Of a stretch of DNA of 64,000 nucleotides, positions 1 through 53,182 are shown piece after piece (position 1 is the first letter of the stretch; every line of letters begins with the position of its first letter). The stretch is from Catajapyx aquilonaris. Its lineage: Eukaryota. The notes beneath the pieces were generated by a model. That model had not been told where the DNA came from and searched no databases. It saw only the letters and a list, made by a program, of their open reading frames with translations. The DNA is taken from NCBI GenBank assembly GCA_000934665.2, contig KZ538102.1, positions 62,001 through 126,000 on the forward strand. Reading direction: 5' to 3'. Position numbers and translations under genes: made by a program.

Positions 1-618
1 AAATACGCCACGCTGATTGCAATTCATACTTGATGGCCTCCCCCCTCTCAGCAATGCGGTGTAATTGGCTAGAAGATTTCCTCCTCTTCCCCCCCACGCC
101 CACAAACATGGCCGACCCCGCCTATATACCTCTCATCAAACATCAAACCACTGCATTGCATGTCACACACGGTCTATATGCTATGTACTACGTGGTTCCT
201 ATATTTTGCAGGGTAAGAAAATCCCTGGCTCCCAGCACCTCCAAGACAACGTGGATGTAGCCGGGGTAGAAGAATCCATTCCGAATTGTAAATAAAGAGA
301 GTGGTTTGCCTAGAACAGCTCCTTTCTTCTACCTGTCAAGTACTCTTCGGAGACCCGAGTCCCTCAACAGTGCCGGCCTTTTGGCCTTAGCATATTATCA
401 ATATCAATGTCGTTGTTGATGTTGTCTAAAGAGCTGACTCCTTAATTGTTACAATCTTCGGCATCGACATTGTGGTACATCTTTCTTGTGGCAAGCCTGT
501 GTGCTAGCGATATGTATGTTGTTCTTGTTCCCCCCAATTTCCTCCCCCGCCATGGTCCCCCCCCCCCACTCCACCCTTAGCTCCCCCTGTTCCTCCGAGG
601 TCCCGTCCCATCCGCGGC

Positions 619-767
619 TGTGACGTCACACTACCGGCTTCCCTAGGGACTTCCGGTTGCGCCAATGGCCTGCTGCCTAGCCTTACTAGTCCCCCCATCC
701 CTTCCCATCTCCCCACCCCCTCCCCCGATCCTTCCTCCCGCTTCCCCACCTCCCTCCGATTATAAAA
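619..767 (+). promoter_or_regulatory. Putative core/proximal promoter of the BTB-ZF gene
   Basis: Palindromic CRE TGTGACGTCACA 619-630, ETS ACTTCCGG 649-656, CCAAT 662-666 and TATAAAA 761-767, in order, about 370 nt upstream of the ATG in CpG-rich DNA. Confidence 0.55.
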
Positions 768-1138
768 CATAGGGTGCAAGGCAGAATTTATGATGGTCTG
801 CTTCCCAAATCGGGCAGGTGAAGCACGGTGATTTCCCGGTGGCCGTCACCCGCAGATACGGTACCGTCAATTAGTCCCTCCCCACGTGCGGCCGTCGGGG
901 GGCGTGGGAGTTGGGGGAAGGGTGGGGAGTGTCGAAAAGCCCCGCGAAACACGCATAGAACCCGTGTCCAGGCGACGATGGCCCACCAAGTGTGATTGGT
1001 GGACTTTTTTCTTCGACCACATATGTGAAGTGCGTGACCACCACCAGTAGTCCTCCTCACTCAGCTCGCTACCTGCCTGCCTGCCCCCTTTATTCGCCCA
1101 TCTGTCTGGCTGGCCCCGAGGTCACTTCCCGGCCAGCC

Positions 1139-2956
1139 ATGAACCCTCTCTACACCAGCGAGCTCCTCAAGGCCTGGCTGCGTGACCTGACCCCGACTGC
1201 TTTTGCGGCCTCCCCGTCCCCTTCTTCGTCCGGAACGCCTTGGTCACCCCCGACCGCCCCCGACGTTTTGGTCACCGTGGGCGACAGGGCCTTCCCAGCG
1301 CACAGGTGCGTCCTCAGGGCCCACAGCGGCTTCTTCAAGGCAGCCCTCAGCAATTCAAGCGACCACCACCACGGTGAGTTACCAGTTCTGCCCAATTATG
1401 CACACGGACCACCTTGGTTCACATGTTTCTGTCACCTGGCAGGTGTAAGCAGCTACACCCAGGTTGGCGGCCGTTCATCCCCGTCATCCCCGCCGTCCAA
1501 CGGACAGTCCCCTCCTCCCAACCCATCCAGTCCGCCCCCGGGCCGACCCACCAGCGTGGGGGTACCGCACGTGACCCCCGAGGCATTCTCGCCGCTGCTG
1601 GTCTTCATGTACTCAGGCTGGCTGGAAATCAACGCTGCCTCCGTGTACGGTGTCCTCCTGGCAGCTCAGCTCCTGCACATGCCCCACGCCCTGGAGCTGT
1701 GCCGGGCCTTCCTCCAGGGCGGCCCCAGGGCTCCCTCCCCGCCGCAGCCCCCGCCTCGGCTGGTCAAACCAATCCCCAGTCGCCGGATGCCTCCCCTGCT
1801 GGGCCTCCCCTGGGCCGCCCCTCTGGCTCCCTGGACCCCGTGGCTGGACCCCCCTTCGTATCCCCCTCCTCCTCCGGCACCGTCCTTGTGGACTCCGTTC
1901 CTTCCTCCGAGGCCACCGACACCGTCCCCGCCCTTGCTTCCCCCTCCGCTGCCCCCGCCTCCGCCCCCGCAGCAATCCACCTCGGCGCCCACCCCACCGC
2001 TGACCCAATCATCCGCATCGCCCAGGCCACTGCCGTACTCCTCACCCGGGAGGTCATCTCCTGGAAGCATTCCCAGCACCAGGCCGATTCGTGACCCGCA
2101 GCCGTCCGACACGGGCGGAGTCATCATCGACGTGGCCAACTGCGACGGGCCCGTCCGATTTCAACGTGTCCTCAACCCCAACTACGGCCTGGGACTGAAC
2201 CTGGGGGCGCTGCTGGGGGACAAGGAGACCGCAGAGGCGGATGTTCCCAGCGCGGCCGCCCTCAACGACGATTCCAACACCGGATCCCTGCCTTCGTCAC
2301 GCGGTGACGTCGCAGATAAAGGTATTGGTTCCGATCCACGTAATGAGGCATGCTCTGGCTTCTGAACCGCGACATGTGTCATTATGTGGCTTTCATCTAA
2401 CTCGTATGGTACTCTAATGGAACTGGCTCCAGTGCCAGTGCAGACAGCATAATACCAGAAACTAACAATCAGCCTTTCAGAACCGTCGTCGGCATCCCCA
2501 GCACCGGTACCCCCACCATACCGCTGCCTGTTCTGCAACCACACCTTCAAGAGCCACTACTGCTACCAGAAGCACAAAAGGCGACATATAAACCCCATTC
2601 CCTTGGACCTGGAGCGACTGGGTGCCCAGATTGCTGCTGCTGCCACTGCCGAATCATCAGAGATACCAGGTGCTCCAGAGGGAGCAGGGGAGAGCACAGA
2701 GGGCAAGAGGGATGTGGCACAAGATGATGTACAAAGTGAGATGGGCAACAGCAGCAGGGATAGTGGCAGACAGTCATCAGTCACCCAGCCACTAAGCACC
2801 AAGAGGCAGCTGGAGCTCAACGTGCAGTATTTCCCATGCAAGACGTGTGGATCCAAGTTCCCCAGCTATTACTTTGTGCACAAACATCGCCGAATCTGCC
2901 ATGGGATTGACAGCGAAGGGGACGACCCTCGTGGGGACAGTTCTACTACTTCATAA
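1139..2956 (+). CDS. BTB/POZ + two C2H2 zinc-finger protein (ZBTB-like), 3 exons: 1139-1373, 1443-2321, 2481-2956; about 529 aa
   Basis: ATG in gccATG context. BTB signature: DVLVTVGDRAFPAHRCVLRAHSGFF...VPHVTPEAFSPLLVFMYSGWLEINAASVYGVLLAAQLLHMPHALELCRAFL. Intron 1 is 1374-1442 (GTGAGT..TGGCAG). Intron 2 is 2322-2480 (GTATTG..ACTAAC branch point..TTTCAG). Both are phase 1 and keep the frame. Exon 3 encodes YRCLFCNHTFKSHYCYQKHKRRH and FPCKTCGSKFPSYYFVHKHRRICH, then TAA at 2954-2956. Confidence 0.9.
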
Positions 2957-3000
2957 ACGATACATTCATGTGCACGTGTGAGGTTCTAATCTTATAGAGA

Positions 3001-3006
3001 AATAAA
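3001..3006 (+). terminator. Candidate polyadenylation signal of the BTB-ZF gene
   Basis: AATAAA about 45 nt after the stop codon, with T/GT-rich sequence downstream. Confidence 0.5.
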
Positions 3007-4226
3007 TTGTGCCCATTTCCCCATCCCCATCACTTTGTTAGGTTATTTAAGCCAGACCTGTGCATGTTTATATCCTAGTGGTGACACATGACAGCATATG
3101 CCTGCTAACTGCCACTTCCCAGACTCTCCCAACTGGCCTCCCAAAAAGGTGTCCATTGTCAGATAGTGACATTCATGTCACATTTAGACATTCAGATGAT
3201 TCAGTATCATTGACTATTTTGGAATATGTATACCTTGGCCACTGTTAATCAGATAGTTATCTGTTAGTATACCTATGCGTCTAAAAGTCGCATGCAGTAG
3301 TGTGCAGATGAAAATATGATCAAGCTATGCTGTAACTGTTTGCAACAATACCATGCCACTTCAACTAAGGATTCCAAACTACCAGCCACATTTTTGTAAT
3401 CACCCCAAAGGCAGTTCTGAGTAATTACTCTATCATGAATTAATCTCTCCTGTACGGCACTAACACACACTCCAACTCTTTGACAATGGGAGTACTATTC
3501 ATCACATACACGAGTTTAAATCATGTTCATCGTGTTTTTATTTGGCTATGTTCAGACAGGATAAACTTAATTTTTATTGCAGATAATCAGAATGAACAAG
3601 TAAACTCAGATGTGTCATTGCAACAAGAGTAATGAGAAGCAATGGGAGTAGTCCTTACACTTATTTTCACTCATTAAAATTATCTTCCAGCAACATTGTA
3701 TCCTATATTTGCGGAATTCAGGTATTCATCCCTATGTGAACTCAAGAACCATGCACACAAGTGGGTGGGTAAGTCGTGTTTCGTCAGAAAGCTGTGAAGT
3801 GATTTACAAGAGCCTGTAGCCTCACAAATTGCCACTTACTGAGGGAGGTGGGGAGGGGGGAGGAGAGAGAAGGGCAACGATTTATTACCCCCACTCACCA
3901 AATTCTCAGAATTAGTTTCCATTTGATTCTTCACAAGCAAAATGAACAATAAAAAAAACTCTACACCAGTGTGCCAGTCAATGCATGGAAATAAAGCATA
4001 ATTATGTTCAAAGAAAGTACAGTGTGAGATGTCAGTAAGAATGATCAATTTCACATTTAATTACTCTGTAGGAAGTGGGCAACTCAGTTTGGTGTTTGCA
4101 AATTGTGTATCAAGACGTTACAATTTGTGTTAAAGTAGCTTAAACTTTTAATTCAAATCTGTACATAACTGAAGAGTTCTAACGAACTTTCCATCTAACC
4201 TCCCATGACCCTCTGTACATCAACAT

Positions 4227-4266
4227 TTATTATTATTATTATTAATTATTATTATTATTATTATTA
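4227..4266. repeat. (TAT)n microsatellite, imperfect
   Basis: Direct reading of tattattatt... with one interruption. Confidence 0.85.
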
Positions 4267-4802
4267 CAGCAATGCTGACATGACTGCCAGTTATATCACA
4301 GGTTGTTAAATTGAATTTTGGCCACATTATTATTCATGAAGGGAAGAGAAATGCGCTGGTGTGGCTGCACTTGGGAGGTGAAAGCCAACTGTTGGCGTGT
4401 TTCATTGTCGTTCTCACAAGGCCAACGGTTGGCCAGCCAACCTTTGCTATCTGCGCTTGCCTTGGCAGTACTCAGTAGCCTTGAATTTTGGCTGTTAGTG
4501 TCTCCCGTTAGTTTCAGGAGAAACACAACACCCACCTGGCCTCGGCTCCCTCCCCCACTTCCACAAGCTTTCTGCCAAATGCCAAGCATTGGGCACCCTC
4601 ATTCCACTCGAGTGCAGCTAGTTCTATAATCACAACAGGGCAGTAGCCCAAGCATGCTCAACTGTCGCCTAACAGTTATGTTTCACCTTGTCCATAAGAC
4701 AAGGTAAAGCCATGTCCCATCCAAGGTCTCTTGATCATTGGGGTTAAGGCAAACGGGCACTGCCTTCTTTAAATGGATACCTCGGCCACCAAATGCCCTT
4801 AC

Positions 4803-4909
4803 CTTTGCTATCGGTGATTTCCTCTTCGCTGCTGTCCAACTCCTCGCCTTTCTTCCTATCACCTTCTCTCCGCCGCTCCTTCTTGTTCTTTGACTCCGTT
4901 CTCACATCA
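4803..4909 (-). CDS. NCOR: NCoR exon 11 (SDVRTESKNKKERRREGDRKKGEELDSSEEEITDSK)
   Basis: Acceptor GGTTTCAG is phase 2, matching exon 10. Donor AAAG|GTAAGG. Encodes a charged linker as expected after SANT1. Confidence 0.85.
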
Positions 4910-7900
4910 CTGAAACCACACGAAACCATCATCAGTTTCTGTTGCAAAAATATACGCTGCAGTAGTAAGCCTCAAAGGCATTCCAATAGTCACAAGCCAT
5001 AATAGTCTGACATAGTTTCATCTAATTCATCAGCACACTCACTGCCGCAACCACTGCACAAAATCCCAAAGTGCCCTAGGCACGCTTCACCTACAGCGTG
5101 TACTGCATGGATGGGCACCAACGACGTCTTGCCGGCAGCACTACTACTCCCATCCAGACTTCACAAGTGCATCATTCCCACCGAGTGCACATAGCACAGT
5201 GCAAGTCTCTTGGCATGACACCCCTTTCTCCCAAGCCACCTCACCTCCCCTCCTGCCATCCCCTAACCCAGACACTCCCATCTCTTTCTCTCGCTCTCTC
5301 TCCTCTCTGTAGTCAGCTTGCACATGGTGCCAAGGGCACAGGTGACTCGCAACTGAGAAGGTAGGTGGACGAATGCAAAAAAAAAACCCGAGGGGCAATA
5401 AAAAAAACGGCAAACTAAAGAAGGGGAGGGGAACGACGCGGAAGGAGGTGGGAGGGGGCAAGGCCATGCTCTGCCAATCTACCAGCAGTAACTTTTACGC
5501 TTGCTTTCTGCAGGGTCACTCTTTTTAGTTTTTTCTTTCTTTTTTTGCCTCCTTCAAGAAACGCTTGGCTTCTCTCCCAGGTTGCCAAGTAGTGGTCTGC
5601 TGCCTAGTTCTCGTGCTCTAAATCACTCGATTGAAAACGTGGGGCCTCCCGTTGGCCTTCTATCACTGTGTCATCAGTGCATAAGATACAAAATCATACA
5701 CTGTAACAATATTTGCTATAGCCAATCTCACCTACTTTTAGGAACTAGTGTGGGCACAATGCGCTGTCCTAAAAGCAGGGGGGCTATTCACGTCTCCAAT
5801 TCCACAACCCTTCCCAGTTAAGTGCTGCCAAGAGTGAACTAACTTTAGTCCTGTCAACATCAACCTGAACGTCACATTTAACTCTTACGGTCAGAGTATT
5901 GGAGGAAGACAAAGAAGCAAGCCTGTGTGTCTCTGCAATTGACTGCTCTTGGCCGACATCCAGTCGAGGTGTTGCCAAAATAGACCATCCCAGTTCAGGG
6001 GCCTTCCCAACCTCTTTGGCACAGATCCATCCTTTCACATTACACCCAACCCCCAGATTCTCAGTGATCAAAAGCATGAGTCAGTAGATACTCAATGCTA
6101 AATGCAAATCACTTATCGTATCTGCTCCTACTAGGTCAATCTCCTTTAATTTCATTCATACAATAAGGGAATGTGGTGGAGGCTCTGGATGAGCAGTTGT
6201 GATAGTGCTGCACTTTCTTGGTTACAACCCCTCCCCCAACCCCGGCAACAACCAGGTGCCGGACTAAATATATTCGTCAAGGAATATTGCTGATTCAGAC
6301 CCAGTGGAGATCAGTGTCCCTGCCCGCCTACTAACCATTGCACAACTAGCAGGCACACAAAAATCTAAACAGTCGCCAGGTCTAAATTTGGGTTTGGCTC
6401 GCAGGTACAAACAGGATGTGCAATTTGGCTTATTTAAGCTGCTTCCAGCATTTGCCTTGCAGGGATTCAAACTGGCTACCTGCCCCATTCCTTGTCCCCC
6501 ACCCCTCCCCCCTCACAGCAGAGAAATTTAAGGCATGTGATGCATAAGGGGCAATGCCTGAGACACTCCTCCCTTACACAGTAGTCCCTAATATCTACTT
6601 CTGATACAACAAAAACTAATATAAATTCCACTTTTCAAAACTTGAAATATTAAATCTGCACTGCTGTAACATTATGAGATGGAAATGAAACAATTTCGGG
6701 GCATGGCAAGGGAGATTGATGCCATGCATTTAGACCCACCTGGTGGAGTTCACAAAATTGTGTCAATAACCAACAGTATTCACGAACTTCAACAACATAC
6801 CCACATTGTTGATGCCTTCTATATCAAATTTCAATGTGTGCTGTCATGAGTAAAAACCTACCAAGTCCAGGAGCTTCACAAATTGCACTGTATAAACATT
6901 ATTGTTTGTGTCAACACCATCATAAAATAAAGAATAGTGATATCAGCTACTGTATACTCATCTTTCAGATGAGACTCCCGCGTTACACAGTGAACTCATC
7001 AGAGCTTCTGACCCCAGTCCCTGCCCCTATTTTTGCTCAAGGCTGTACACTGCACCGTGGTATGTTGCTTGGAATATACTGTCAGCACAGTAAGTGAAGC
7101 AGTTTCATGGTGATATTCTCCCTCTCTAATCCTGTTCCCCTTCTAGTACAAGTGTCATTAGCAACATTTCTAGTGAATAAACTCTAAAGTAACACAAAAG
7201 AAAATTTCGCCATTTAAATGTCCATCAAAGTTCTCCCTGACTCGTAACAGGAAAACTTCCTAAATAAAATTCTAACATGTCATCAGGTAAAAAACATTGC
7301 TTAGAAGCTGTGTTAATAAAACTGGCTGCTGCACAATGACAGTAGTACATCCCACCAGCATATGTTGCCGCTTCCTTAAGCTGCTATTTTGAAGGTGAAG
7401 TTAGGAGACATTCCTACCACTGCACAGCAATGTTGCAGCATGCAAGCATTAGCAAACAAGAGAAACCTCAAACAATCACTGGTGGAACAGTCTAAACTTC
7501 CTACACACATCCATGCATAAATGGGCCTTGGGAATCTATTCCCATCTCATTGTCAGTCCAATTGAGCTTATACACTTTGGCAGCAATTGCACTCACACCA
7601 GAAGAGATAAAATTCTAATCACTTGGATTGTCCGTATGTGGAGACACATCCACAAAAATGGGATTGCCCCATCCATTTTTGAACATGTGAGGAAGCCAGA
7701 TAAGCTAAACCATCGCCTGGCCTGTTGATTGGATACTATGCTCACCTGTGACTACTGTTCTCCTTCTCAGCGTCCTTGTCGTCTGGGTGGTCCTTCCCTG
7801 CAGTAGGGGGTGGCAAGGTGGAATCACACGAGGGTCCACTTCCAACCACCCCACTCCCTGCTACACCCGCTCCCCCACTCCCCGCCCCGCTGCCACCGGA

Positions 7901-10900
7901 ACTATCACTTGCCGCACTAGCACATGTCACAGGCGCCGCAGCCGTCGTCACACCCTCCCCACTGCCTGGTGCCACCACTCCACCTCCACTGCTACCTCCT
8001 GCTCCTGTTCCACTCCCTCCTCCATTCCCACTGTTCCCACCATTCCCTCTCCCTCCCCCACTTGCACTCCCTCCTCCATTTCCACTATGTCCTCCTCCAC
8101 CATGGCCACCATGATGTCCTTCCCCATTCCCATTGCCCTCCTGCTTCTGTTGCTGCTCCCTCTGAAGTGCCGCCACAGTCTGCCTGGTGGTTACGCCCGG
8201 TGTGTTGGCTATCATCTCCGCCACAGGGTTCTGGGGCTTGGTGAGGCCACCCCCTCTCGTGGCCCGGTTGCGCACCCGGCTCTTCTTGATCAGCAGCTTG
8301 TAGTTTTCAGTCTTCTTGCTGAGGTAATAATACTGGACGCAATCGCTGATGCTCTTGCGCTCCATGTAGCTGCGGATTATGCTGAAGTTCTTGGGGTGCT
8401 GCAGGAACTTCTCTTTGAACAGATCCTTCTCCTGGTCTGTCCACACGTTCAGCAGCTGGCGATCCTTGTACTCTGCCATCGGGTCCTCAATCAACCCATT
8501 CTTGTTGTCAAAGCGGAGCTCACGCTGGTGGTTGTCCAGGAGAATCGGAGGGATCACAGCGTATGACCGCATCTTCTTGTCCTCCAGCTGCTCACCACAC
8601 AAGCACTTGTTAGAATTCCTCGTTACTTAGGACCTATCCCCCACCCCCCCACTCATGGATGCTAAGAGGAAGCCCTCTAGCAGTCCTTGAGTCAACACCT
8701 ACAACTATCCTTCCACAAAACTCACATCAGGACAGGATTGTGATATACCCAAAGCTTTAACACAGGCACTCAAAATGCGTGCAGATAATAAAACCTTTGA
8801 GCTACAGGAGGCAGCTTTAGCCTATTTCATATCATTCAAAAAACTTAAATTTTTACCATATAAAGCAGAGAACAATCATGAGGGCAATCCTCCCATGTTA
8901 TTTTTACTGTTTAATCTTGAACTTATCCAACAAATTTGATGGGTCAATATGTCCAGTTATCTAAAGTGTATCCTGAAGTGCACTAGTGTGAACTGGTAAT
9001 TTTGTTCTTGCATGTCATCATTGCCACAAAAATAGTTTATGAACCACATGCGCAAGTCCAACGTGAATTTCTGGTTGCCTGCTATTACTAGATAGCCTCT
9101 AAGGCATTTGTCAATCCTGTCTTGAGTTAGATCATCTGATCTGCATAAAAACTGCTTAAATTGCAGTGTAATTGCTTATCATTGATGCATCTGCATGACA
9201 CTTGTAGGTGCATGATGGGGGCTTAGGATGCTAAGAACTAGCTTTAATTTGCTGTGACAGCACAATTTGGTTGCAAAAGGCCATTCTTTGTCCACACAAA
9301 TGGAGCAAAATTATATTGAGTGTATAGGGAATTAACAAACCCCTCTCGTCCTGTACCACCCACCAGCACTAAAGGTTCCCGTCACCCTGAATGGTGTGTT
9401 ATTTCATGCTAATTCATTACAGCTGATGGATCGCAAGTTACACTTCAAGAGTTACATTCAGCATCCATGAAATTCCAAGGCACAAGTTCAAGTGAATTGC
9501 ACCAACACCACCCAAAGAAAAGGGTATGTAGTCAGGCAGCCATGGTCAGTAGAACATTTCATGAAGATAATTGCAGCTACCTTTCATGTTTCAAATTACA
9601 CCCTGTTCATAATTAGCTGGAGTGAAAAGGGCTATTAAAATTGCATTATAAAGCATTCATAGTGCCCTGAAATCTTGAAGTTCATTTTTAGCAAACCTTA
9701 GGTATGGAGTTCAGTCGGTTTTCACCTACATTAATATCCATGGGACAAATATTAATGCAGAAAATGAGTAACTCAAATACTTGCACAAATGTCACACTGG
9801 GCCCCTGAAATGGCATGATCACAAGAGTAATCAACGAATGCAACTCACACATATGCAATAATAATAATAATGGGCATAATTGCACTTGCTTTGGTCATCA
9901 AAATATCCTAACTTGCAGCTGCACACGTGTTTTTCATGGCAGGGAATTCCTTCCAAGATCTGACTATTGGGAAATTATGATGGTATAACCCCTTCATTAG
10001 CTGATTCTTTGTGGCAATTGTTTTTCACGCATAGCTTGCCTAACCTTGTACCTTTGCATCATTTCATTCACCACAACTTTTTCACATGATTATCCTTGCA
10101 ATTTTACTGTGCGTATTGCAATAAGAAAGTCAATCCATTTGAATTACTTATTTTGTAACACATAGGCCACCATTCTACCCAGTTTACCACACTGGATGTG
10201 ACAAAACAAATATAAATATGTTACAGAAAAAATAAAATACTGCAAACCTTTCAATATTACTGTGAGCAAAAGGAATTATGAATTCTGAGAGTACATTACA
10301 ATACTGATCTCAACTTAGTTGCAGGAACTAATCTCATTCTTATAGTCAGTGTTATGAGAGAAATAAAAATAAATATTGCCATTTCAGATGGTGGCCAAGA
10401 TCAAAAGTTAGGTACAAGTCAGGAATTCTTATTTTGCAATTAACATGCCAAGTTATCACATAGACCAAATACTGCATGATGATCAGGTCAGGAGCAATTG
10501 GAAAGAGGAGCTTGCATGCACAGAAACCTTGCCCACACTATTGCCTCATCACGTCACTTTCCCCTGTAAATGCTTCCCGAAACCTGCCACCTTTCCCTGC
10601 TTCCTTCTCCTTCCGTCTCCTGAAGTCAGGAATTGAATCATATCATTCTAAGTGAAGCTTAACTTATGCAGTGCCTCCGTCTGACCTGACAGAATTTGTA
10701 GTGCCAATAATCAATGCGACAAACAGCACTGGTGCACTGCACATAAAAGAATTATTATATTATTATATTATTATATATATCATGGGATACAGATGTTGGG
10801 TGATATGCAGCATATCACCCAACATCTGTATCCCATGACTTATCCACACCATTCAGACACCTTCAAGTTAAAATAATCCTCCACCTGGCATTCTCTAACC

Positions 10901-13900
10901 TGGAGAGAAGTGTAGCAAACTCTACTTTGCAAACTCAAAAATTACCTGCTCCAAATGCATACACCACGTTTTCCTCTATATTGCTCTTGTAAACTCAAAG
11001 CTTATATGCAGCATATTACTCTACCTAGTGTTCTACTGGGTCATGGCTGCCTGTGCACCCCTCACACAGTTTTTGCATCCACTAACAGCTAGCAAACAAA
11101 CAGTTAGGGGATCTGATAACTCCCTTGGACTGAAACTCAGAACTGATGGAACAAGTAACGCAAATACCAATAGGAACTGAAAAGAGGCCATGTTTCTGTT
11201 CTGGGTCACTTCCGACTTCACCACTGAACGCAGTAGAGCGGATTTGAGGAAGCGCACCTCTTGCTCCTGCAGACCATCCATGATTTCCTCCAGGTCTGCA
11301 TCGCTTTTGATCCTGGCCCCAACACGGTTGAACCTCTCCCGGTCCTCCCGTTGCTTCCTCAGCTCAGGAAACACCTTCTCGAAGAATTCCCGGTTCTTTG
11401 CCTCCTTGGCCTTCCGCTTCTGCGAGCCCTCCACCTTCTCCACCTTGCGAGTCCAGTCCTGCATCAGACGCGAGTAGGTCTTGGTCAAGAAGCGCTCCCA
11501 CGCCTCGCGCTGTTGGTGTTGCTGCTTGAAATGCTGGATCAGCTGCTTCTTTATTAACAGGTACCTGTCACAGTGAACAAAAATTAGCCCATGCCTCACA
11601 AAAGCAATGCTTCTACACAGTACCTTCTCTTGTTCTCATGGTACACAGCCATGTCAGATGGTTGATTGTACAGGGGCTGTAGGGAAAAAAATTTCACTGT
11701 TAGTAAGAGGTCATTCATCCAAGGTGGCTAACTTACAGACCCTTACGAAATAGCTCTGCAGCTGAAAGCCACAGTTGTCTGTGACAACTCGAGAATAATA
11801 AAGGGAAATAGCTATGTCCTGGAGGCTGAGAGATAACCTGGGGACTTGCATTTCCACTGAATTGAGCAACTAGAAGTATCTCAGTGTTCTCTCCCATCCC
11901 AGCTAATTAGAGAGGAAGAAGTTGAAAAACTTGTTCCTGGTATGTAACGGCTCAAATACATTCAAAATGAAAATAGCCATGTGGTGTAAAACCATAAAGA
12001 TCAAAAGTACACACATTATACTTCATATCAGTTAACCCTTAACTATGTAGGTGGAGCCTGAGAGGCTCCAAGCACTATTAAACGCATGTAACTTTTTCAT
12101 TAAATTTTATTATCCCCTGTCCTTCCGTTACTTTGTCAGAAAAACCTTCCTAAGCATGGAAAGGAAAGAAAAAAATTTTTAGTCCCTATTCTTTGGGTTT
12201 AAAAAATTCGTAACGAGGAACAGGTCCCTCCTGAAACCGCTCAGGCTCTATATCTCAGGTGAAGCCTGAGCGGCTCAAACACATGATGTAACCTTTTAAT
12301 AAAAAAATTTTCCCTGTCGGAATATGCTGACTCAGCGTGTGATTTTTACGTTTTCGGAAGCCTAATGATCTGAACTGCACTTTCTGTATGTGAAAAGTCC
12401 AATATAATAATTTAGTTGATAAGCAGAAATTTAAATATACCGTTGAAGCCTCTCAGGCTCCACCTACGTAGTTAAAGGTGTTTCACCCACCTACGTAGTT
12501 AAGGGTTAAAATTATATTTCTAAAGTTGCAATTCATTCAATTGAAAATGCTGCTTTCCCATATCCTAAGTTCTTTGGACTGTGTCTAATGCCAATGAATC
12601 TACATGACTTGTAGCAAGGCCTATCCAATATTTTGAATTCTAAGCATACCATTGCCTTGCATAGTAACCCATGTGGCTCAACATTTTCATAATGTTTCTA
12701 CACCCTGTGCACAAAAATGCTTGTAGTAGGGAATAAATCCTTACCAACTCCACCTTGGGACCTAACTTCTCCAGCAAATCATGAGCCTCCTGAGCTTTTT
12801 TCTGAAACAATGCAAACAATCTCATCATACAGGCTCTGCTCACACCCAAATCCTCAGATCACTCACCCTATTTTCTGCATAGATCTTTTGTGCTAGACTC
12901 TGATGCTTTGGTTGTGAGCACTCCTCCTCCTCCTTATCATGGGCAGGCTTGTTGGCAGTCTCCTCCAACTCTTGCTGCAACGTCACCAATATTGTTAATA
13001 TTATTTTCTGGTCCCCCGTTATTTTTTTAAAATGTTTCCATGCAGAAAAGCACATTTTACGAGCACAGAGCAAGTATTAGCAGCTCCACCCACCTGCTTC
13101 TTCTTCAGCTTTGCAATCTGTGACTCAGCCTTGGCAATTTCCCTGTCCACCTTGGCAATTTGCTGCAGGAGATCGTCCTTTGTGGATCTTAGCGGAGACT
13201 CATCTCGAAGAGGCTCTGAGGGTAGGGTTGGGGAAATGGCTTCCACCTGAGGGTTGTATGCTGGGCCCTGAAGAAAGAAAATTTATAATGCAGGGATTTA
13301 CAAGTATTACAGAGCATATCAATGGCAATGTCTTCAGTTGCACCACCTCACTTGTCAATTAAAGTACTCCCACAAGAATTAAACAGCCCAATAGAACGAG
13401 GCCCAGCAAGGTTGTTGGGTGTGCTGCATATATTTTGAGAACCACACTAAACATAAGCCAGCTGATTCGAAATTTATGATACAGATTCAAGAACTGATTG
13501 TTCCACAGCATCATTCTATTACCATCTTGTCTATGACAGCAGCCTCTCCATGATTTTACACAACAAGACGAATTAGAACACCTCAAGTCAATCAGACATG
13601 ACCTGTCCTCTAGCATTCCACTTGACTGTCAGTGTCAAAGAAGTGCACCTGCACATCTTAGAATCTACACTTTCGAATTAAAACCACAACACTGCACTTG
13701 CAATTGGAGATAAATTCCCACACATGAGCACTGGTTGAAAACAATCAAACTCCCCTCCACCCCCTCCCAGTCCCACCCACCCCCTTTTTCCATGGAAGGA
13801 GGCCATTGTTCCGGGGGAGGGGAGGGGGGGGGGGGCGCCTGGGTCACACAAGACGCACAATGGAATGAAAACCACCCCCATACTCCCCCACACAAAAAAG

Positions 13901-16900
13901 AATATACGGGCATCCCCCCCTTCCTCCTCCCTTCTTTTCTCTTGGTGATTACCGCCAGCTCTCTAACGATCCGTGCGGCCATCTTGCAGGTACAAAGGTC
14001 ACACATGAAGGGAAAAAAAGGGGGTTGCCCAGGCAGCAGCAGGGTCGCGTGGGTAGACAGAGAAAGGTCTCTGAAGGAGGGACACCAAGGCGCATGGGTG
14101 AAGGATAGGATGCAGGAATCAGTCACGAAACTTTTCCCTGACCTTCCTCGAGGGCAGCACCCATCCCGAGCCTACAAGACTCTCGCATCCAACCAGCATC
14201 CGAACAAGTACCACAACATCTGTGGAACACACAACTTGGAAGTAACCCCCCCAGTCGATACTATCAGTCGCAATGCTGCCAATTCACCTGATGGCTACCA
14301 TGCACCAAAGTTTGTTTCTCCGCGCCAAGAGTGCTAACTATATCCCCAGGATACGTTTTTAAACATTTTCCAGCCGTAAAACATCCAGCCCTAAAAATAC
14401 CACCGCACCCATCCTGCCATAGAATGCACTTGCCCATCTTCACTTTGCACTTCGTCCTCCACAAGGTCGACAAAAATCACCACTACAAAAAAAAAAAATC
14501 CGTCCTTTTTTTCCCCCCCCATCCAACTGCATGATCGATGGCGGTTCATCGCACCACAGCCTTGCATTAGGATCCCCCTCCCCCTCCCCCCATGCACCTC
14601 CGCATCAGTTTGTCAAAAAAAAAAAAAAAATGCATATAAAGAAACCCAGACTCTCTGTTCCTTGGCCATCAGCCATACTTCCTAAACCATAGGATATCCT
14701 CTCTTCCTTATTATGGGCAGGAAGGCGCGGGGTACCACTCGTGCTGGTGGCCTTGCACTCCCACCAACTACATTTCCTAGGGTCCACCTATCTCTTTTCA
14801 CTCTCTCAATAAAAAAGAAGGGAAAGGGGGGCAATCCCTCAGTAACACCCGAATGTCCTACCTAACACTAGGTAACAAGTTACATTCAATTAACGTGAAC
14901 TGCAAAAAAATAAAGTTCACAGGCTATTCATGTTACTGTGGCCCTGAAGGTGTCCAGTTCATATTTGCTCCTCCACTTCTCCAGGTCCTATCCAGTGTCC
15001 TAAGACAGTAGTGTTAATTGATCCTCCACTTCTCTGATGGAAGGTGTCACATCCCCCACCCCTTCTGGAGTCAATTGGATGCGCCTCGTCAGCTCCTTTC
15101 CTAACCCATCTGCCAGACACAATCGAACTGTATCTCGATTCATTCCCAGAAAACCCACTTTTCGGCCCCCAAATTGGATCAAGCCTAGGCCTCTAGGGAA
15201 CCAGTGGCGGCATCTCGCTCAGCATGGACCGGGAGGAACCAGATTTTTGTTCCACTCCCCATTCTCATTAGGACAGAAACCAAAACATATAGAGAGGAAC
15301 CAGTCATTTATACACCTGCATGACGGTGCCCCCATCCATCCTCCCTCCACACATGCACACAATGGGCAATCGATGCAAATGTTTCTAATGGCGGCTGCCT
15401 GGCCTTGGCAACTTCATAACGTGCCCTCGGGGATGGATACAGTAACACTATCGCCAAGGCCGCTCGTGTGCGTTTGGGTGTAGTTGTTCCACACACAGGA
15501 TGTTGACGCGCAGATAACAGCAGCCGCATTCATGGATGTGTGTCCACAACCAAATGGTTTGAACCACAGCAGCCCCCACCCCCCTATGCTGCTACAGGAT
15601 GGTTGTAAAACCACATGAACCCTCTTGCACAAGACTAAACCGAACTCTGCATCTCACTTATGGGCTAAAGAGTACATTAACATAAAATTTCTGAAATGCC
15701 CTTTAAATCCACCTCTCCCAACATCTCAGATTAATTTGATTATATCTTAGCATTCTAATTAAGAGATAGGAAAGGCAGGGTCTATATACGTTACGGGCGC
15801 AGAAGTATAAGCACTGCAGCAACCCCACCCTGGTGGTGCCATATTCCCAAGATGACTATAAAACAGTAGTATGTAGTTCACACACACACACCCTTCAAGA
15901 ATACTAACTGTTGATCAATGTCCACATCATTCTACTAAAAATAGGCACACCATACAACTATAAAACTGGAACCCTGATCCTTATCATCCACTTGGAGTGG
16001 AACCACACCTCCCTTGTAGTTAATACTACATATAATTATTATATATCACTTTTGTGATTGATGGCATTATCAAATTCCCTCCCAATACGCAGAATATTTG
16101 CAACATACTGTATGTGAAGATCTTGGTATGAGGCTCACAGTTGGGAAGAGACGTACCCTGGTCCTCTCGGTGTCGATGCGCAGCGGCTGCAACAACTCCG
16201 GCCTGGATTCGCCAAGTCGAAGTCTCTTAAAAGGCGGGTTGCCAGAGTCCGTCGAGGGCATGAGTGGTTCCCTTGGGTCCCGAAATGCATCAGTCCTATA
16301 TGGAAAAAGACATTCGTATCAGATGTGTAAAAATACAGTGAAAGCCACCCAAAATACACTTAAAATATCAGTTTGTCAATTGCACCTTGTGACATCTAAT
16401 CCTCTTTTCTTTCCAAAATTATGAGGAATATTACCAAACAACTGATGTCATATTGACCACATGAGTTACACATGCTATATGCCTTATCACCTTCTGGTAT
16501 TGGTCAACGTGGCTCTTACATATGGCAGTCTCCACTAGATTACATAATGAGTGGTTCCACAAATCCACTTAATACAACATTGCAGCTGCAAAAATCTCAA
16601 TCAGCTGATGAGAGACATCCTGCAATAGCAGGCCTAGAGATAATGCCAAACACGTTGACAATTTTTATTTACAAAGTGTACAGTCAGCTGTCATTATCTT
16701 TAGGATTATCCTATTCGTAATACTACCTACGATCTGCATTTGCATGTCTCGTGGTGCACTATCAACTCCCCAATGTCACTGATTTCACACGCCACTGAAA
16801 TCCAAATGTCACTCTTGCAAGGACTGGATATGTAATTACGCTCTCAGCAGGGGGGTGTATAATTTATGTAAATCAATAGCACGGTATTGCATGATTCCAA

Positions 16901-19900
16901 TTACTACTGTATTAAAAATTAAAACTTGCTCAGTTATGAAATTGACTATGCATTCAGCCTTCTTTCTGCAAATGTCTTCCAGCATATTGTTTGTGACCTT
17001 CCTACATGAATAATCATAATACTTCTGTCAAATCACTCTGTACTAAGAAAGCTTCACCCACCCATAAGGACACGCTCTTCCCTGAGGGTACTCAGGGTGC
17101 AGAGGTGGCGGTTGCTGCTGCGGTGGTGGTTGCTGCTGCTGCGGCGGTTGCTGCTGCGAAGGAGGCTGTTGTTGTTGCTGCTGTTGCTGCTGCGGCGAGG
17201 GTGCATGACTTGGAGGCATGCTCTGGGGCATGGATGGGGGCATGGAGAGGGGCAGGATGGGAAGGGGCAAGGGCATGTGAAGGGGCAGGGACATGGATGG
17301 CTGCTGCTGCTGCTGGGGCTGTTGCTGCTGTTGTTGCTGCGACGATTGGGACCCGGCTCCACTAGAGGCGCTCTGCGAAGGTGGAGGTGGCGGCTGAGGC
17401 GGAGGCGGAGGTGGTGGCGGCCCTGGGGCGAGCAGGGTGAGCCGGGCGGGGGGCGCAGAGGAGGAGGATGGGGCCGTGGACCCCGGGGCGGGCGCACCCA
17501 GGGGCGGCCCGGGGGGAGGCGGCGGAGGGCCACCCGCTGCCGGGCCAGGCCCTCCCGATCCGTCGCGCTCCCCGTGCCTCTCGGGCTGAAGGCGAAACAC
17601 GGATCTCATCACTTCCTCTCCCACACTCCACTGCAAACGTTATTGCATTCCGACTTGGCCACTAGTCTACACAGATATGCGATTCACATGCTGCAGACTG
17701 GCCTGGGTCAACAGGGTCAAGCACTGCCTCATGCTGCCACAGGACTCAAATGGAACTTGACACCTACCACTATCATACACAACCAGACATATGGTCAACC
17801 CTAGTAAAAATTCGAAACAAATTCGTCCAGATTTAAATAGTTAAAAACTTGTGTTAAGTCACATGACAGGATATGCATACTCATCCCAAAAATTACAACC
17901 CGAGGCATATGATTTGGGAATAAAAATTCTCCCACCACTCTAAACTGGACATCCAATCTGTGGCTTACACCAGGACTTTCATGACTACATTTTTCCCCTT
18001 CCCACATATACGCACCCCCTCTGGCAAGATGAAAAAATAATTAGAATATTACTTCTGCCCATTACTTTCCATTCGGAATCGAAAGTCATTTGGAAAATAT
18101 CGCGTTCATACAGAATAGGTCACTCCAACATTGCTTCTGAAGCACGATAATAATTCAACTAATGGAAAATCACTACTCCGTAGCGCCGCAGGGCACACAC
18201 TTACAGGCAGCGTAATAACCCTCCCAGCAGCTGATACATCAAACTGCAATAAATCACGGCCCCATTGCATTTACATTCTTAAGAATCCTCCAGTTATTGG
18301 TATCCAATAGGGCGTGTCTAATGGGGACACCCTGGAATTATACCGCCTGCAATGCCACGTGACCTCCAGGGTTGCCGCAGCAATGGGCAAGATATATTTA
18401 GTGTCGTCGTATCCAGACATGATATTCCGTGTGTCAGGCGTGCATCAGGCAGACCAATGGTGCGAACACCTGCCATGCAAGTTTCACAGTGGAACGACCT
18501 TCCTTCCAGCTCAGCAGAGGACAACGTTGCTGAATCAATATGGCCTCCACCAACCAACGACCCAACACTAGTGGGGTCGGCGGGGGGTGGGAGGGTGGTC
18601 TCTCCCACCCACCACCCACCCCTCCCACCCGACGAACCACCCCCCTTGAAAAACCTTCTGTCTGAAGGAGCTTGACTCACGAAAAGCCCCGTACACTGAC
18701 CCACCAATATGGGGCACAAGAGAGTTGCCAGGTACGGGGAAATACTTGGTCATGCCGGGAAACGACATGTCGGTTGACGAATCTGATATTATTAACACAA
18801 TATGCAATGGCCAATTTCGGTAACCAATTGGGCCAAGATGCTCCAGCTGATGCATCGAAATTTATGGCAACACTGTTGCTGGTGGGGGGTCACCGGCAAC
18901 AGCGCAACTCCTCCAGGTTCCCCCATTGTAAAGATCCACCTGGGTGCGCCAGCATGTTGGAAAGGTGGAGTGTGAAACACGGACTTGGAATAAAAGGCAA
19001 GGAGGGATGTTGCAGAAGAGGTAAGGTCAACGACTCCCCTCCTGGGGGCTATGTTGCCAGCACTTTTTTTTTAAATCTATATATTGTTTCTCATGAGGTC
19101 AGTCGGGCAATCCATCCATGACTACCACCGCATACTTCCATCNCCCCCACACTTTCCTATTCCAGGAACATCTTCCGGACGCACTTGGATTACTAATGGA
19201 GCCGGAACACGAACCGATGGGAGCTTCCATCACTTCCCATTTACATGCTAGTAATATTACATTACAAAACCCCCGTTAGACATTACTGTCATCAAAATGT
19301 TACACAATTCGCAAACGAACAGTCACATCACAGCACAATATTTACACCCCCTTCAAAACTTCGAGTTATGCAATGTCACACATGACCATATATCCGAAAA
19401 CTTCCCCCTTCGTCCTCGGCACATATTTCACGGTGTATTGAAGATTTGGGAAGCGTGACACTACGTATCTGTAACCCAAAGTCGAGACCCCCATTCCCAT
19501 GCAATGAGTTGCATGCTTCTTGACTTCTCTTTTCCCCTTCCTTCCACAAAGGAACTACGCATAAAAAAGCATATGTAAAAAAAAATGAAAAGTGTTTCGC
19601 TTGCATGGATGGGAACCAGTCCCACAACGGCAACTCCGCGAATCCTCGCACCATCTACACACCAAAAAAAAAACTAGCAAGACTATTTCCTCCACAATCG
19701 AAGGACAGGGCGGGGTCAACCCTGCATGCTTGACAATACGCGCACCTGTTCTAAAAACAAACGGTCTACCGGTACTCGCACACCTACTTCCTATCCCCCT
19801 ATTTCCTCAGTGACGTTTTGGCTGATAACTGCCAAAGATAACCTGCCAAATATCCCCCCCAAAAAATCGACAACGTCTGATTCTTTGTCTGTGGGAAGGA

Positions 19901-22900
19901 CGATGACACGTTCCGATTAAAAAAAGATGGGGCAGACCCTGGATCGAACCAATCGATGTCCGGGCGGCCATCTTGGTACGACCACCAAGATGGCTGCCAG
20001 ATATTCGGGGGAAATGTCTGGAAATGACCACTTCTGAAGATGGCCGAGGGTTTCATTTCGAGTTGATCCAACTCAATTACAAGCGGTTTCTTTTCGAAAA
20101 TGCCCGTAACGGCTCGGTCTCATTTACATGGTGGAAAACGTACTGGCGGAAAAGCTCAGTCGGCATCGTAACTTTCAAATGGCGGGGGAAGTCAATGCGT
20201 TTTCGTCACGACAACCTCCGAAGAAAATAGTTATGACGCATAAAAGCTTGAAGGAAAAATCACATTCTCATAAACCGGATTTTCATTGGGACGCAATGCA
20301 CCGATAGAAAGCCGTAGCAAGCTTAGCAATTATATGACATTACTATATAAACTTTCCTCGAACAATTCCAGAGTTCAACACACCGCATACCCTGGCACTC
20401 AGGGTATTCGGGATTGCTTGAAGGCAATGTAGCCAACATAAGACGGATGATACCTTGAATCCTGCCAGAGAGAAAGTTGCTCATATTCGGCGGATATAGA
20501 TGGGCTTTTTCCCACATCACTTTTCCAGAATTCCCAATCGAGGGTACTGGGGGGAAAAAATGTTTCGGTTTTCTTGCCGGAATGGAGAAGAAAAGCGCCA
20601 GCTTCCGCTCCAGCTCCCGTTTTGATTGCCCGGGTTTCCGCCAAAAACTGGGCTGAAACCAATTCGGACCAAGATGCCAAACTAGCCCCTGCCAAATATT
20701 TGAGGTTGGCTATATTGCAGATCGTGGCGTAAAATCCGACAAATTGAACCTTCGACCCCCCCCCCCCCCCCCNCTTGGGATGTACGAGGGCTGTGGCTAA
20801 CGACTTCAAAATGTGCAATGCAAAGTTCTTTGCGCAAATGGTGACGCCGCTGTTATTTGATCCGCAAGGACATGTGCAGCACACACGACAAAAAAAAAAA
20901 CATGCGTCGTCTTCCCAATGCGGCTGTTACAGAAATGTCCCTCATGCGCTGTTTTGTGTGTGTGCTAATTTTCCTACCGAACCTGGAGACTTGCGACACG
21001 AGATGCCACAATGCGTGTCATTCTGCGAATCCCAAGAATTAAACCCGCTCAGTACCCGTTTTCCCAAAAACGGGTATTGCAAAATTAAGTCTGTCCGTGC
21101 CCACCCTAAAATGGGCTCGCATGCTACACCGACGTTAAAACCCAAGGTAGAAATCGTAAAACCTAGATATTGTCGCAATCAAAAAACTCGGCCAGCTCTA
21201 CTCGCTACTATTTCCCACCTATACGCTTTTTGTTGACCGTACGTACCACCTTTGCAAAGCACCCGTCTATTTAAGTGTGCGGCCCCAGCAGTGTTCGTGG
21301 CATTGAGCGAAAAATACAATCGCTCCACGGCATCCATTTCATGCGTAATAAAAGTTGTTCATTTTAAGCTTGCAAGTTTAAAGTTCCGCACATAAAATCA
21401 GCAAATAATCTCAAGTATTCTCAGATGGCCGATTCCGCCATAAAAATCTGCTACGATAGCATAAATGCTCCTTCTATCTCCAGGAAGTTGAGCAACTCAT
21501 GAAAATGAAGTACTACACCATCCGGTAGATAACCAACTGAAGGTGTACGGTCCAAATACATAGACCATGGTTTCGCATCACCTAGCTATATCTATCCAGC
21601 ACCCTCCGGTTATCCCATAAACTAGAGTGGAATCGAGGCTCTGGATCCCATCTAATCCTTGGCTGGTCAGGTAACGTGATCCTCAATGCAATTAGTCAGC
21701 CAAAGTCAGGCTGTCCGCCAGCAGCACGTTCGACGGCGTTTGGTCGCTCGTGCTGCGGGCTCACGTGAGCCCCTGCTGGCGCCCTTATCCCCCAGCACCT
21801 TGCCAAACCCACAGGATTTATCTACACGTATTTTTTTTTTAACTAAAAAAATGCACAAAAAATTTTGGGCATGATATCTATGCACGCACTGCACCGTTTT
21901 TTCCTAGTACTGCAACTGGCCTTCACCGGTGGTTTTGGTCATACTTCCGGACTACCAAGATGGCCGCCATCATCTTGATCGAGGGGATTAGCCAGGTCCT
22001 AATCTGACAGCATAAGTCCTGAATCCTGCCCCCCTTGAGAGGGACTTGGCAGTGCAAATGGCGGGGCAACCTTATCTCTTTTTCTCAGTGACGCACCAGA
22101 ATCAGCCGGGCAAGGAGAGGACCCAATTCCCACACCAGTGGTGCATGAGGCAACAGCCCACTGACAACCAGGGGGTACATGGGGAATAAAATTATATTGT
22201 CGCGCTAGGCTTGACCACAAATGTTACCGCTCGCTTGGCTGGTCAGCCGGCTGCTACCGATCACACATCCTGGATCGGGCTGTGTCAGTGTGAAAACCCT
22301 GACGTGGCACCCACCGTACGCTGTCATGTCTCAAAATCCCGATTCGGCCCATAATTTTATGTGCTTGAACATTAAAGTGTAACTCGGGTGTAATCGATGT
22401 ATGTTCATCACACGAAATTGGGTAACATGACCCTTTCCGCATACGCACACTTTCTGATTCCAAATTCGTCATCGTCTGATCATGCAGGGGGTACCCGGAT
22501 GAGAACTACACTGATAAAATCCAAGTCAGTTTGGCAGAATAATATTACTGAACATTAAATTAGTCTGAATGTAATGTTTATCTCCTTCAGCAAATGGCGG
22601 ATCTCAAATATGTTGTAACTGTGCGTCATGACTGTTAGAAGAACATTCTGCAAATCCAATGTTCAAATGCCAATCCTGGTGCGCACATGCCCGACTTGCA
22701 ATAATTACTGTCATTGTATGCTATGTTATGTGCGTGGAATCTATGCTGCTTGCATTGCTTCTACAGTTAGGACTCGAAGAAATTACAGTAAAACTTCTCT
22801 AAGTCGAATCTCCATGGGACCGGGGAAGAAACTTCGAGTTATAGAAGATTCGAGTGAGGGAAGTTTACAATTTTTTAAGCACACAACTCTATAACGAAGC

Positions 22901-48976: not shown

Positions 48977-48990
48977 NNNNNNNNNNNNNN
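48977..48990. other. Assembly gap (N run) next to poly-C
   Basis: 14 N followed by a C run. A second gap is at 52977-52985. Confidence 0.95.
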
Positions 48991-51900: not shown

Positions 51901-53182
51901 TACCATTGCCACCGTATCATGCTTGTAATGTCAACAATGGTGATGTCATTTGGGATTCAAAAATCACAATGTAGTTCCACAGACTCAAAAAAATTAATCT
52001 TAATTCCGAATGACTTACTCAGACTTCCTTTGAGAGCCTCTGTGAATGGCAACACACTGTACAGCATGGGTCCAAAATCTCCGATCATTTCTGCGAAGGT
52101 GATGAGTCACCTCTGGTGACAATGGTTCATGTGAACAACGACTATTGCTCCACGTCCACCCCCCACCCCCACCCCCACCCCCTTGAATGACAGATGATCG
52201 ATGAAAGCCAAAATCGACCTCAATCGGGGTCACAACCGACGCGACGTCTCCTTGGCTTTTCCTGCCTGTGTCCATTCTTATTCTTCTTCCGCCCAACATG
52301 TCATGTACCCGCCGAAGACGCGTGTCACACCACTTCCAATGGACATTCCTTTGCATAGGAAAAAGTGTGTATGTGCAATGTTTTCGTACGCTGTTATTCA
52401 TCAGAAATCAGCAAACATCAGGTGGTTCAGCCAATCTGGTCTCACCTCTTGGGCTTCATCAGCGCAAAATGTAACTGGCCCAACTTCAAAGGACTATCGT
52501 GTGGCGAGCCCTACCGGCACCTGCCTTGCGACTATAGTCCGCTTCTTTCTACCCCCTTCAACAACCCCGAGTGCAGGCAATCGGAATTGTATTTTCCGTC
52601 GGAAACCGGACACTTTATTTGGCTACACGGTTCATTAACGTCCTCGTCCCGGCTTTAATTGCAAACGCGGAGGCGACGAAATATTTCACACCACATGACA
52701 CCTCCTGGCTGAGGTAACTCGATGGGCACTACCCCCGTACCTGCGAGATAGAGCAGGTCGAAATCACCTGAAGCACACACGCACTCTCACACAAAATTGA
52801 ATTCCTAATGCGGAAGTCTAATAAATGTGTTAGTTTGGGCCGACGGAACACGTGTCGAGCGATAAACACTTGTTCCATGCCGGGCAATTGCATATATGGA
52901 GTTGCTCCGATGACAATGTAGCCAATGCTAATAAGAAAACACTGAAACCCCCCAAAAATATATGAAAGTGAAATTGNNNNNNNNNCCCCCCCCCCCCCCC
53001 CCTGGAATTCAGTTCACTAGACCCATTACTGCAGAAGTAGTCAGGACATTACCATGGTAACGAACCATTATAACAAATTGATTGATGGATTGGCTTTTTA
53101 CGGCGTAACAAGCAGCTGGTGACTGTATGCTTCAGAAACTATTTCGCATTGTCAACAAAAATAATTAAATATAACAAATATA

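Follow-up and report, generated by a model that had tools for sequence, protein, structure and literature searches.

Gene Content of the Window

The window analyzed here is a 64,000-nucleotide stretch of Catajapyx aquilonaris contig KZ538102.1 (positions 62,001 to 126,000; assembly GCA_000934665.2), and two of its genes, on opposite strands, are described. The plus strand carries a gene encoding a BTB domain and two separate C2H2 zinc fingers, here called the guest, and gene model and family alignments confirmed it as complete. The minus strand carries the first half of a gene for the corepressor NCoR/SMRTER, here called the host. Judged together with the annotations of other arthropods, the two genes probably form a conserved host-guest pair, in which an independent antisense BTB-zinc finger gene is nested in an NCoR intron and has been kept there since early pancrustaceans mainly by entrapment. 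Features of both genes are given in Table 1.

The stop-to-stop frame of the guest extends from 959 to 2365, and its earliest in-frame ATG is at 1139. Splicing from 2321 to 2481 keeps the frame into 2481-2956 and gives a product of 552 amino acids (aa). Further removal of an in-frame candidate intron of 69 nucleotides (nt) at 1374-1442 gives a product of 529 aa, again without a stop. Guest orthologs have no residues at the aligned position of this candidate intron, which may be either spliced (529 aa) or retained (552 aa). The initial annotation had described a complete plus-strand BTB-zinc finger gene of 529 aa; the gene model, the Pfam BTB match and the two fingers bear this out, with the 552 aa product as an alternative. 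An upstream open frame of five codons was also found at 978-995 (ATG at 978), out of frame with the guest start at 1139.

Base composition differed between the two genes. Across 501-1000, 5' of the guest, the GC fraction was 0.61 and the CpG observed/expected (o/e) ratio was 0.71. The 5' region and body of the guest had 59-72% GC, with a CpG o/e of 0.64-0.96 over 1-2500. By contrast, CpG o/e was 0.15-0.5 over the NCoR host body (3000-16000) and 0.65-0.97 again past 18 kb. This contrast fits a germline-methylated host body and an unmethylated guest. With a GC- and CpG-rich 5' region and an AATAAA signal of its own, the guest appears to be a transcription unit in its own right.

The host gene was traced leftward from near 17.6 kb, with a 107-nt exon at 4909-4803 as its last visible one. 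Searches with 10 arthropod NCoR proteins (tblastn) recovered seven coding segments (16405 to 8138), SANT1 among them, and the Pfam family Myb_DNA-binding (Myb/SANT) matched 7742-8626 with E=3.4e-06. The Gln/Pro-rich frame at 17043-17639 is probably an N-terminal NCoR coding exon. Host and arthropod NCoR proteins shared the same order, with the GPS2-interaction region (coiled coil) followed by SANT1, at 52-68% identity over about 400 aa.

The exon at 4909-4803 ends in AAG/GTAAGG with its frame open, and is in phase with the donor of the SANT1 exon at 7746. Its 35 residues (DVRTESKNKKERRREGDRKKGEELDSSEEEITDSK) aligned to a termite sequence, ENKKKERRKEEKKKKEEVETSDEECVDTQGK, and to the corresponding stretch in beetles, a louse and a dragonfly. 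The exon is homologous to the KKKERRK..SDEE..GK segment that, in full-length arthropod NCoR proteins, directly precedes the Cys-rich exon (..GG.HPC(I/V)VC..). Both the coordinates and the description in the initial annotation, in which the NCoR frame exits exon 11 through a strong donor at 4803 without a stop, were correct.

A set of 58 queries, made up of NCoR proteins and C-terminal NCoR fragments, was used to seek later parts of NCoR in 1-8100 (E<=10). The search returned 23 matches (best E 0.34), none of them credible for the Cys-rich domain, SANT2 or the CoRNR motifs, and no homology supported a terminal NCoR exon in 3000-4800. The same search agrees with the earlier observation that no NCoR domain or terminal exon is recognizable in 1-4800. 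Because 1-8100 holds no later NCoR exon, NCoR would leave the window through the 4803 donor. The window thus contains only the first half of the host, and its Cys-rich domain, SANT2 and receptor-interaction motifs would be encoded to the left of base 1. No N occurs in 1-19142, so no assembly gap lies between the guest and the host exon.

A (TTA)13 microsatellite is located in the host intron at 4227-4266, between the 3' end of the guest and the exon at 4909-4803.

Table 1. Coordinates of guest and host gene features in the window.
Feature	Coordinates	Strand	Evidence
CRE (cAMP response element)-like palindrome TGACGTCA, possible promoter element	621..628	.	Pattern match only; GC-/CpG-rich stretch 5' of guest
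TATAAA, candidate TATA box ~375 nt 5' of guest ATG	761..766	+	Pattern match only
Guest coding sequence, part 1: start codon, LLKAWL motif (1163-1180), first half of BTB (from 1259)	1139..1373	+	Aligned to MYSLYRAWL start of orthologs
Candidate 69-nt in-frame intron in BTB loop; retention adds 23 aa	1374..1442	+	G/GTGAGT donor ... GGCAG/G acceptor
Guest coding sequence, part 2: second half of BTB (up to ~1717), KPIPSRR (1766-1786), proline-rich linker, conserved block VIIDVANCDGPVRFQRVLNPNYG (2120-2188)	1443..2321	+	Pfam BTB; family alignments
Guest intron, 159 nt	2322..2480	+	AAG/GTATTG ... TTTCAG/AA restores frame with conserved fingers
Guest last coding exon: finger 1 (2519-2587), finger 2 (2831-2902), stop TAA (2954-2956)	2481..2956	+	Cys/His spacing; family alignment
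AATAAA, candidate polyadenylation signal 45 nt past guest stop	3001..3006	+	Pattern match
Visible part of NCoR host intron; starts past exon base 4803, exits left end of window	1..4802	-	GTAAGG donor; no NCoR homology in 1-8100 except exon 4909-4803
NCoR exon (exon 11 of the initial annotation), 107 nt, encodes S-DVRTESKNKKERRREGDRKKGEELDSSEEEITDSK-G, strong donor, no stop	4803..4909	-	Phases fit donor 7746; weak tblastn match 4899-4792, E=0.008
NCoR exon with SANT1 and Gly/Ser-rich tail; 5' limit is the tblastn bound, open frame to 8626	7746..8602	-	tblastn down to E 1e-48; donor CAG/GTGAGC at 7746
Five NCoR coding segments (13264-13094, 12998-12867, 12825-12745, 11676-11614, 11566-11255): GPS2-interaction and deacetylase-activation region	11255..13264	-	tblastn bounds
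Probable N-terminal NCoR coding region: weak match 16405-16127 and Gln/Pro-rich open frame 17043-17639 (198 aa)	16127..17639	-	tblastn E 7e-05 to 1e-03

The Guest Protein and Its Family

The BTB domain of the guest matched Pfam PF00651 with E=5.6e-18 (cut-off 20.5 bits). Both fingers follow a C-x2-C-x12-H-x3/4-H pattern, with canonical spacing that is almost invariant in the family. In the AlphaFold model of a weevil ortholog, the BTB domain had a predicted local distance difference test (pLDDT) score of about 95 and the fingers were modeled as beta-beta-alpha with pLDDT 80-92, while the remainder was predicted to be disordered, including the invariant CDGPVRF block (block pLDDT <50). The N-terminus of the guest is MNPLYTSELLKAWLRD (MYSLYRAWL in orthologs), and the Tramtrack motif FxLRWN, as defined in PMC11426971, is absent. 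By these features the guest is probably a classical (non-Tramtrack) ZBTB-type protein, made up of a BTB domain, two isolated fingers, and long linkers, predicted to be disordered, that hold two short invariant motifs. As a member of this type it would dimerize through the BTB domain, contact nucleic acid by the two fingers and act with corepressors as a sequence-specific repressor-type factor.

Comparisons with solved structures placed the BTB domain of the guest near that of the vertebrate factor BCL6. The top single-protein match of the family profile in the PDB was the BCL6 BTB domain (E about 5e-17). This domain was also the top Foldseek match of the weevil ortholog model, at a template modeling (TM) score of about 0.7 on the target, a root-mean-square deviation of 1.5-1.9 A and 32-33% identity. 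The rank of BCL6 among the matches is inflated because BCL6 is heavily over-represented among BTB structures in the PDB. A search of the ESM Atlas with the guest protein returned nothing beyond the arthropod cluster to which it belongs and generic ZBTB clusters of chordates. Among 47 guest-family members, the Asp of the 'PDV' stretch was conserved in 45, and the residue following 'AH' was Arg or Lys in 33. These two positions correspond to the charged-pocket residues of PLZF and BCL6.

With the first exon of the guest as query, 30 insect proteins were recovered; all 30 contained the C.GPV[RK]F block and 28 contained the pattern of finger 1. The family shows five blocks in a fixed order: an (M)YSLYRAWL start, the BTB domain, KPIPSRK, IDVACCDGPVRF.RVLN.NYG and the two fingers, the second of which is preceded by LDMNVQYYPCKTCGSKFPSYYFVHKH. 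All five were present, aligned and in order in the window protein. The KPIPSRK and IDVACCDGPVRF.RVLN.NYG motifs matched no Pfam family.

A profile search of 1.84 billion representatives yielded 144 guest-family proteins at E<=1e-30. Named members come, among others, from Ephemera (mayfly), Anopheles and Wyeomyia (mosquitoes), Teleopsis (stalk-eyed fly), Agrilus (jewel beetle), Bemisia (whitefly), Cimex (bed bug), a psyllid and Limulus (horseshoe crab). The Limulus member (XP_022250946) contains the BTB domain, the block in the form CDGPIKF and both fingers, and the family therefore spans the arthropods. On these matches the guest belongs to an uncharacterized family found across arthropods. 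In a quick tree of the family, the window protein fell outside Neoptera and next to Limulus and unnamed sequences, where the branches are long.

The block IDVA(C/N)CDGPVRF.RVLN.NYG (2120-2188 in the window) hardly varies between insects and Limulus, and it belongs to no Pfam family. It looks like a short docking motif.

Position of the Host Intron and Linkage in Other Arthropods

Public annotations of arthropod NCoR genes were often broken at one place. Of 19 N-terminal NCoR fragments, 12 ended immediately behind the SDEE-type motif; of 18 C-terminal ones, 14 had their first residue no more than 35 residues from the C(I/V)VC motif. This clustering of fragment ends at a single junction indicates that gene predictors fail at this intron in many orders, including a decapod. 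Altogether, at least 12 public arthropod annotations split NCoR at the host intron; in Cyphomyrmex the two halves were named 'corepressor 1' and 'corepressor 2'. Full-length RefSeq models spanning the junction exist in Rhynchophorus (1762-1777 aa) and Cylas (1807 aa), and in both the guest is numbered adjacent to NCoR. The comparison of intron position across arthropods that the initial annotation had proposed thus gave the same protein position in many of them: as judged by alignment, the host intron is at one and the same position in the window, in beetles and in many other arthropods.

Linkage was compared in six of the 22 named guest-bearing species, namely those with an NCoR sequence from the same species. 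Guest and NCoR were neighbors in three of the six and were found on equal-sized scaffolds in two more. In Rhynchophorus, one 134-kb contig carries the guest (KAF7273077/GWI33_014187) between an NCoR piece covering aa 792-1762 (GWI33_014184) and one covering aa 1-788 (GWI33_014188). The break falls between SDEEAASIQ and ..QGVCIVC, which is the same junction as in the window. RefSeq accessions of this species were near-consecutive (smrter isoforms XP_076255291-96; guest XP_076255300-01), and those of Cylas were close together (NCoR XP_060534175; guest XP_060534178-80). The N-terminal NCoR piece and the guest of Blattella were consecutive (PSN49366 and PSN49365, tags C0J52_12218 and C0J52_12219). 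Equal-sized sequences carried the two genes in Cimex (scaffolds of 2.6 Mb) and Aromia (contigs of 2.9 Mb).

All seven species with numbered NCoR halves had one to four other annotated genes between the halves. Cryptolaemus, Apolygus, Culex quinquefasciatus and Cyphomyrmex had a single such gene, Culex pipiens had two, Rhynchophorus three and Diploptera four. Interposed genes are HHI36_021543 in Cryptolaemus, GE061_000167 in Apolygus, EDS36388 in Culex and KYM98299 in Cyphomyrmex.

From the junction and the linkage, the guest very probably sits inside a long NCoR intron, with the Cys-rich and SANT2 exons presumably to the left of the window. The initial annotation had placed the BTB-zinc finger gene within an NCoR intron. 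The conserved junction, the gene order in Rhynchophorus and the neighboring genes in Cylas and Blattella speak for that placement, and its remaining part, the far border of the intron, is supplied by comparison: we infer nesting because the next host exon lies outside the window. The proposal that the pair is an old host-guest unit gained support from Rhynchophorus, Cylas and Blattella, in which guest orthologs flank NCoR pieces or fall between them, and from the shared position of the host intron.

Several points weigh against a conserved nested pair. The next host exon is beyond base 1 of the window, and only the upstream exon at 4803-4909 is visible. Neighborhood in the other species was read from the order of accessions and locus tags and from equal-sized contigs, not from coordinates or strands. 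The Aromia guest is 15 tags away from the C-terminal NCoR piece, and the Diploptera guest (L9F63_026375) occupies a 105-kb contig, apart from the 2.9-Mb contig that carries the two NCoR pieces. Among the seven species with genes between the halves, an interposed gene was recognized as the guest only in Rhynchophorus. For the guest itself, the Pfam zf-C2H2 matches to the fingers (E 0.28-0.32) were under threshold, and the DNA binding, dimerization and repression attributed to it above are presumed from the type of its family.

Age of the Pair and Alternative Explanations

A maximum-likelihood tree of about 380 NCoR columns placed the window NCoR inside Pancrustacea (support 99/97). Its order of branching there relative to Artemia, to a Petrolisthes-Folsomia group and to the winged insects was not resolved, and the winged-insect clade excluded the window at 82/99. 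The sequence is accordingly that of a pancrustacean, probably not a winged insect. If this placement holds, the pair dates to early pancrustaceans.

The proposed arrangement would be as follows. The host would be a single arthropod NCoR/SMRTER gene on the minus strand, in which the intron after exon 4909-4803 parts the SANT1 half from the Cys-rich/SANT2 half. The opposite strand of this intron would hold an independent guest gene of two or three exons. About 1.8 kb separates the end of the guest from the host exon, so that the two mature messenger RNAs would share no exon sequence. The pair would have persisted since early pancrustaceans, mainly because a gene in the intron of an essential host is hard to move without damage to either gene. 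Entrapment of this kind is the most likely reason for the conservation, and it does not imply a partnership of the two proteins.

Such a partnership is the core of a functional explanation, in which the guest recruits NCoR through its BCL6-like BTB domain, antisense transcription tunes the balance of full-length and SANT1-truncated NCoR, and selection keeps the pair together. The guest BTB domain is closest to BCL6 both by sequence and by model, and several of the matched entries are BCL6 BTB domains with SMRT or NCoR peptides; the presumed pocket positions conserve their charges in the proportions given above; and the pair is old. Read-through past the 4803 donor reaches a stop after 19 codons, so an unspliced NCoR transcript would encode a protein ending after SANT1. 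Against this, none of 188 arthropod NCoR sequences and fragments matched the pattern S[IVL]H[ED][IVL]P, which represents the BCL6-binding type of motif; we take the binding motif of the corepressor to be of the ..GRSIHEIPR type. The top rank of BCL6 is moreover in part a sampling effect, given the large share of solved BTB structures that it fills, and long-lived nesting is expected even without function. This circuit is therefore considered unlikely, and the ideas in the initial annotation that the guest makes use of NCoR, that the two genes are co-regulated, or that interference favors truncated isoforms have so far found no support; the BTB domain is BCL6-like, but the matching motif is missing from the arthropod NCoR sequences searched. 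Any functional link between the guest and NCoR proteins is speculation, in a pair for which both gene structures, their orthology, the homologous intron position and the linkage in other species are shown by sequences and annotations. The furthest extension of the functional explanation is a self-contained circuit lasting roughly half a billion years, in which a BCL6-like repressor would lie antisense in the gene of its own corepressor, its transcription would set the ratio of SANT1-only to full-length NCoR, and IDVACCDGPVRF.RVLN.NYG may dock NCoR/HDAC3; this is regarded as highly improbable.

The two genes could also be neighbors that are not nested, either with NCoR here as a gene or copy cut short near 4800 or with a misjoin of the contig in 3000-4800. 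In favor of this, the window holds NCoR in its N-terminal half only, the low CpG o/e that marks the host body (0.15-0.5 over 3-16 kb) gives way near 3 kb, and the minus-strand polyadenylation hexamer TTTATT occurs at 3537, 3573, 3881 and 4226. Such hexamers are, however, expected by chance in an AT-rich intron. The exon at 4909-4803 has a consensus donor and an open frame exactly at the conserved intron position, the full-length NCoR models of Rhynchophorus and Cylas cross the junction with the guest numbered beside them, and 1-19142 contains no N. Adjacency without nesting is thus quite unlikely. Least credible of all is that the guest frame is a copy in decay, or is open by chance in GC-rich DNA, and is not a working gene. 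The region is GC-rich (60-72%) and proline-rich, which lengthens open frames, but the five family blocks are intact and ordered, neither finger has lost its Cys or His residues, the frame is restored at the intron sites, and the window protein branches in the family tree as one more arthropod ortholog. Nesting of an independent gene, maintained mainly by entrapment, is accordingly preferred as the probable explanation.

Comparison With Known Systems

To our knowledge, nested gene pairs lasting hundreds of millions of years are few, and the synapsin/TIMP pair is the usual example. In PMC2825198, that pair is described as a small guest in reverse orientation in one intron of a larger host, with its location kept across animals. 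The guest and NCoR resemble it in having a reverse-oriented guest, probably within one host intron, at a place relative to the host protein that appears to be long conserved. Other genes and another host are involved, however, and the synapsin/TIMP location is metazoan-wide and taken from coordinates, whereas the present comparison is limited to arthropods and combines one window with the annotation order of insects.

Vertebrate ZBTB repressors such as BCL6, PLZF and ZBTB7A resemble the guest in a classical BTB domain at the N-terminus and, toward the C-terminus, fingers of the C2H2 pattern, and the BCL6 BTB domain is the best solved match. BCL6 binds SMRT and NCoR through its BTB domain, according to PMC3942486. 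Unlike the vertebrate proteins, the guest has only two fingers, about 80 residues apart, and no tandem array. It also has the extra invariant motifs KPIPSRK and IDVACCDGPVRF.RVLN.NYG, and its likeness to ZBTB proteins is taken as one of type.

The Drosophila gene CG15725 is presumed to lie inside Smr, as in the initial annotation; no statement on its position was found in papers on CG15725. PMC11426971 lists CG15725 as one of four fly BTB-C2H2 factors without the Tramtrack motif. The guest family likewise lacks FxLRWN and has dipteran members (Teleopsis, Anopheles and Wyeomyia), and our guess, by elimination, is that CG15725 is its fly member. CG15725, CG4013 and Smr were all absent from the supplements of PMC2330155. 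In the supplements of PMC11426971, files 13 and 14 excepted, CG15725 was named only in a yeast two-hybrid table. An RNA interference off-target table listing both CG15725 and Smr was considered as linkage evidence and rejected; its predictions rest on short words shared by transcripts.

No paper on the nesting of the guest in NCoR was found, although subscription journals and the two remaining supplementary files of PMC11426971 may hold more. As the pair is visible in public annotation, the arrangement appears to be undescribed rather than unseen. A BCL6-like guest, probably inside the gene for the corepressor used by such vertebrate factors, offers a testable case of function versus entrapment in long-lived nesting. 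Knowledge of the guest also helps to repair the arthropod NCoR gene models, at least 12 in number, that are split at the host intron, and it draws attention to an uncharacterized, arthropod-wide family with two invariant motifs outside Pfam.

An Rfam scan of 1-20000 gave no match. Elsewhere in the window, runs of N were found at 48977-48990 (14 bases) and 52977-52985 (9 bases), and single N at 19143, 20773, 51561 and 58649, all distant from the gene pair.

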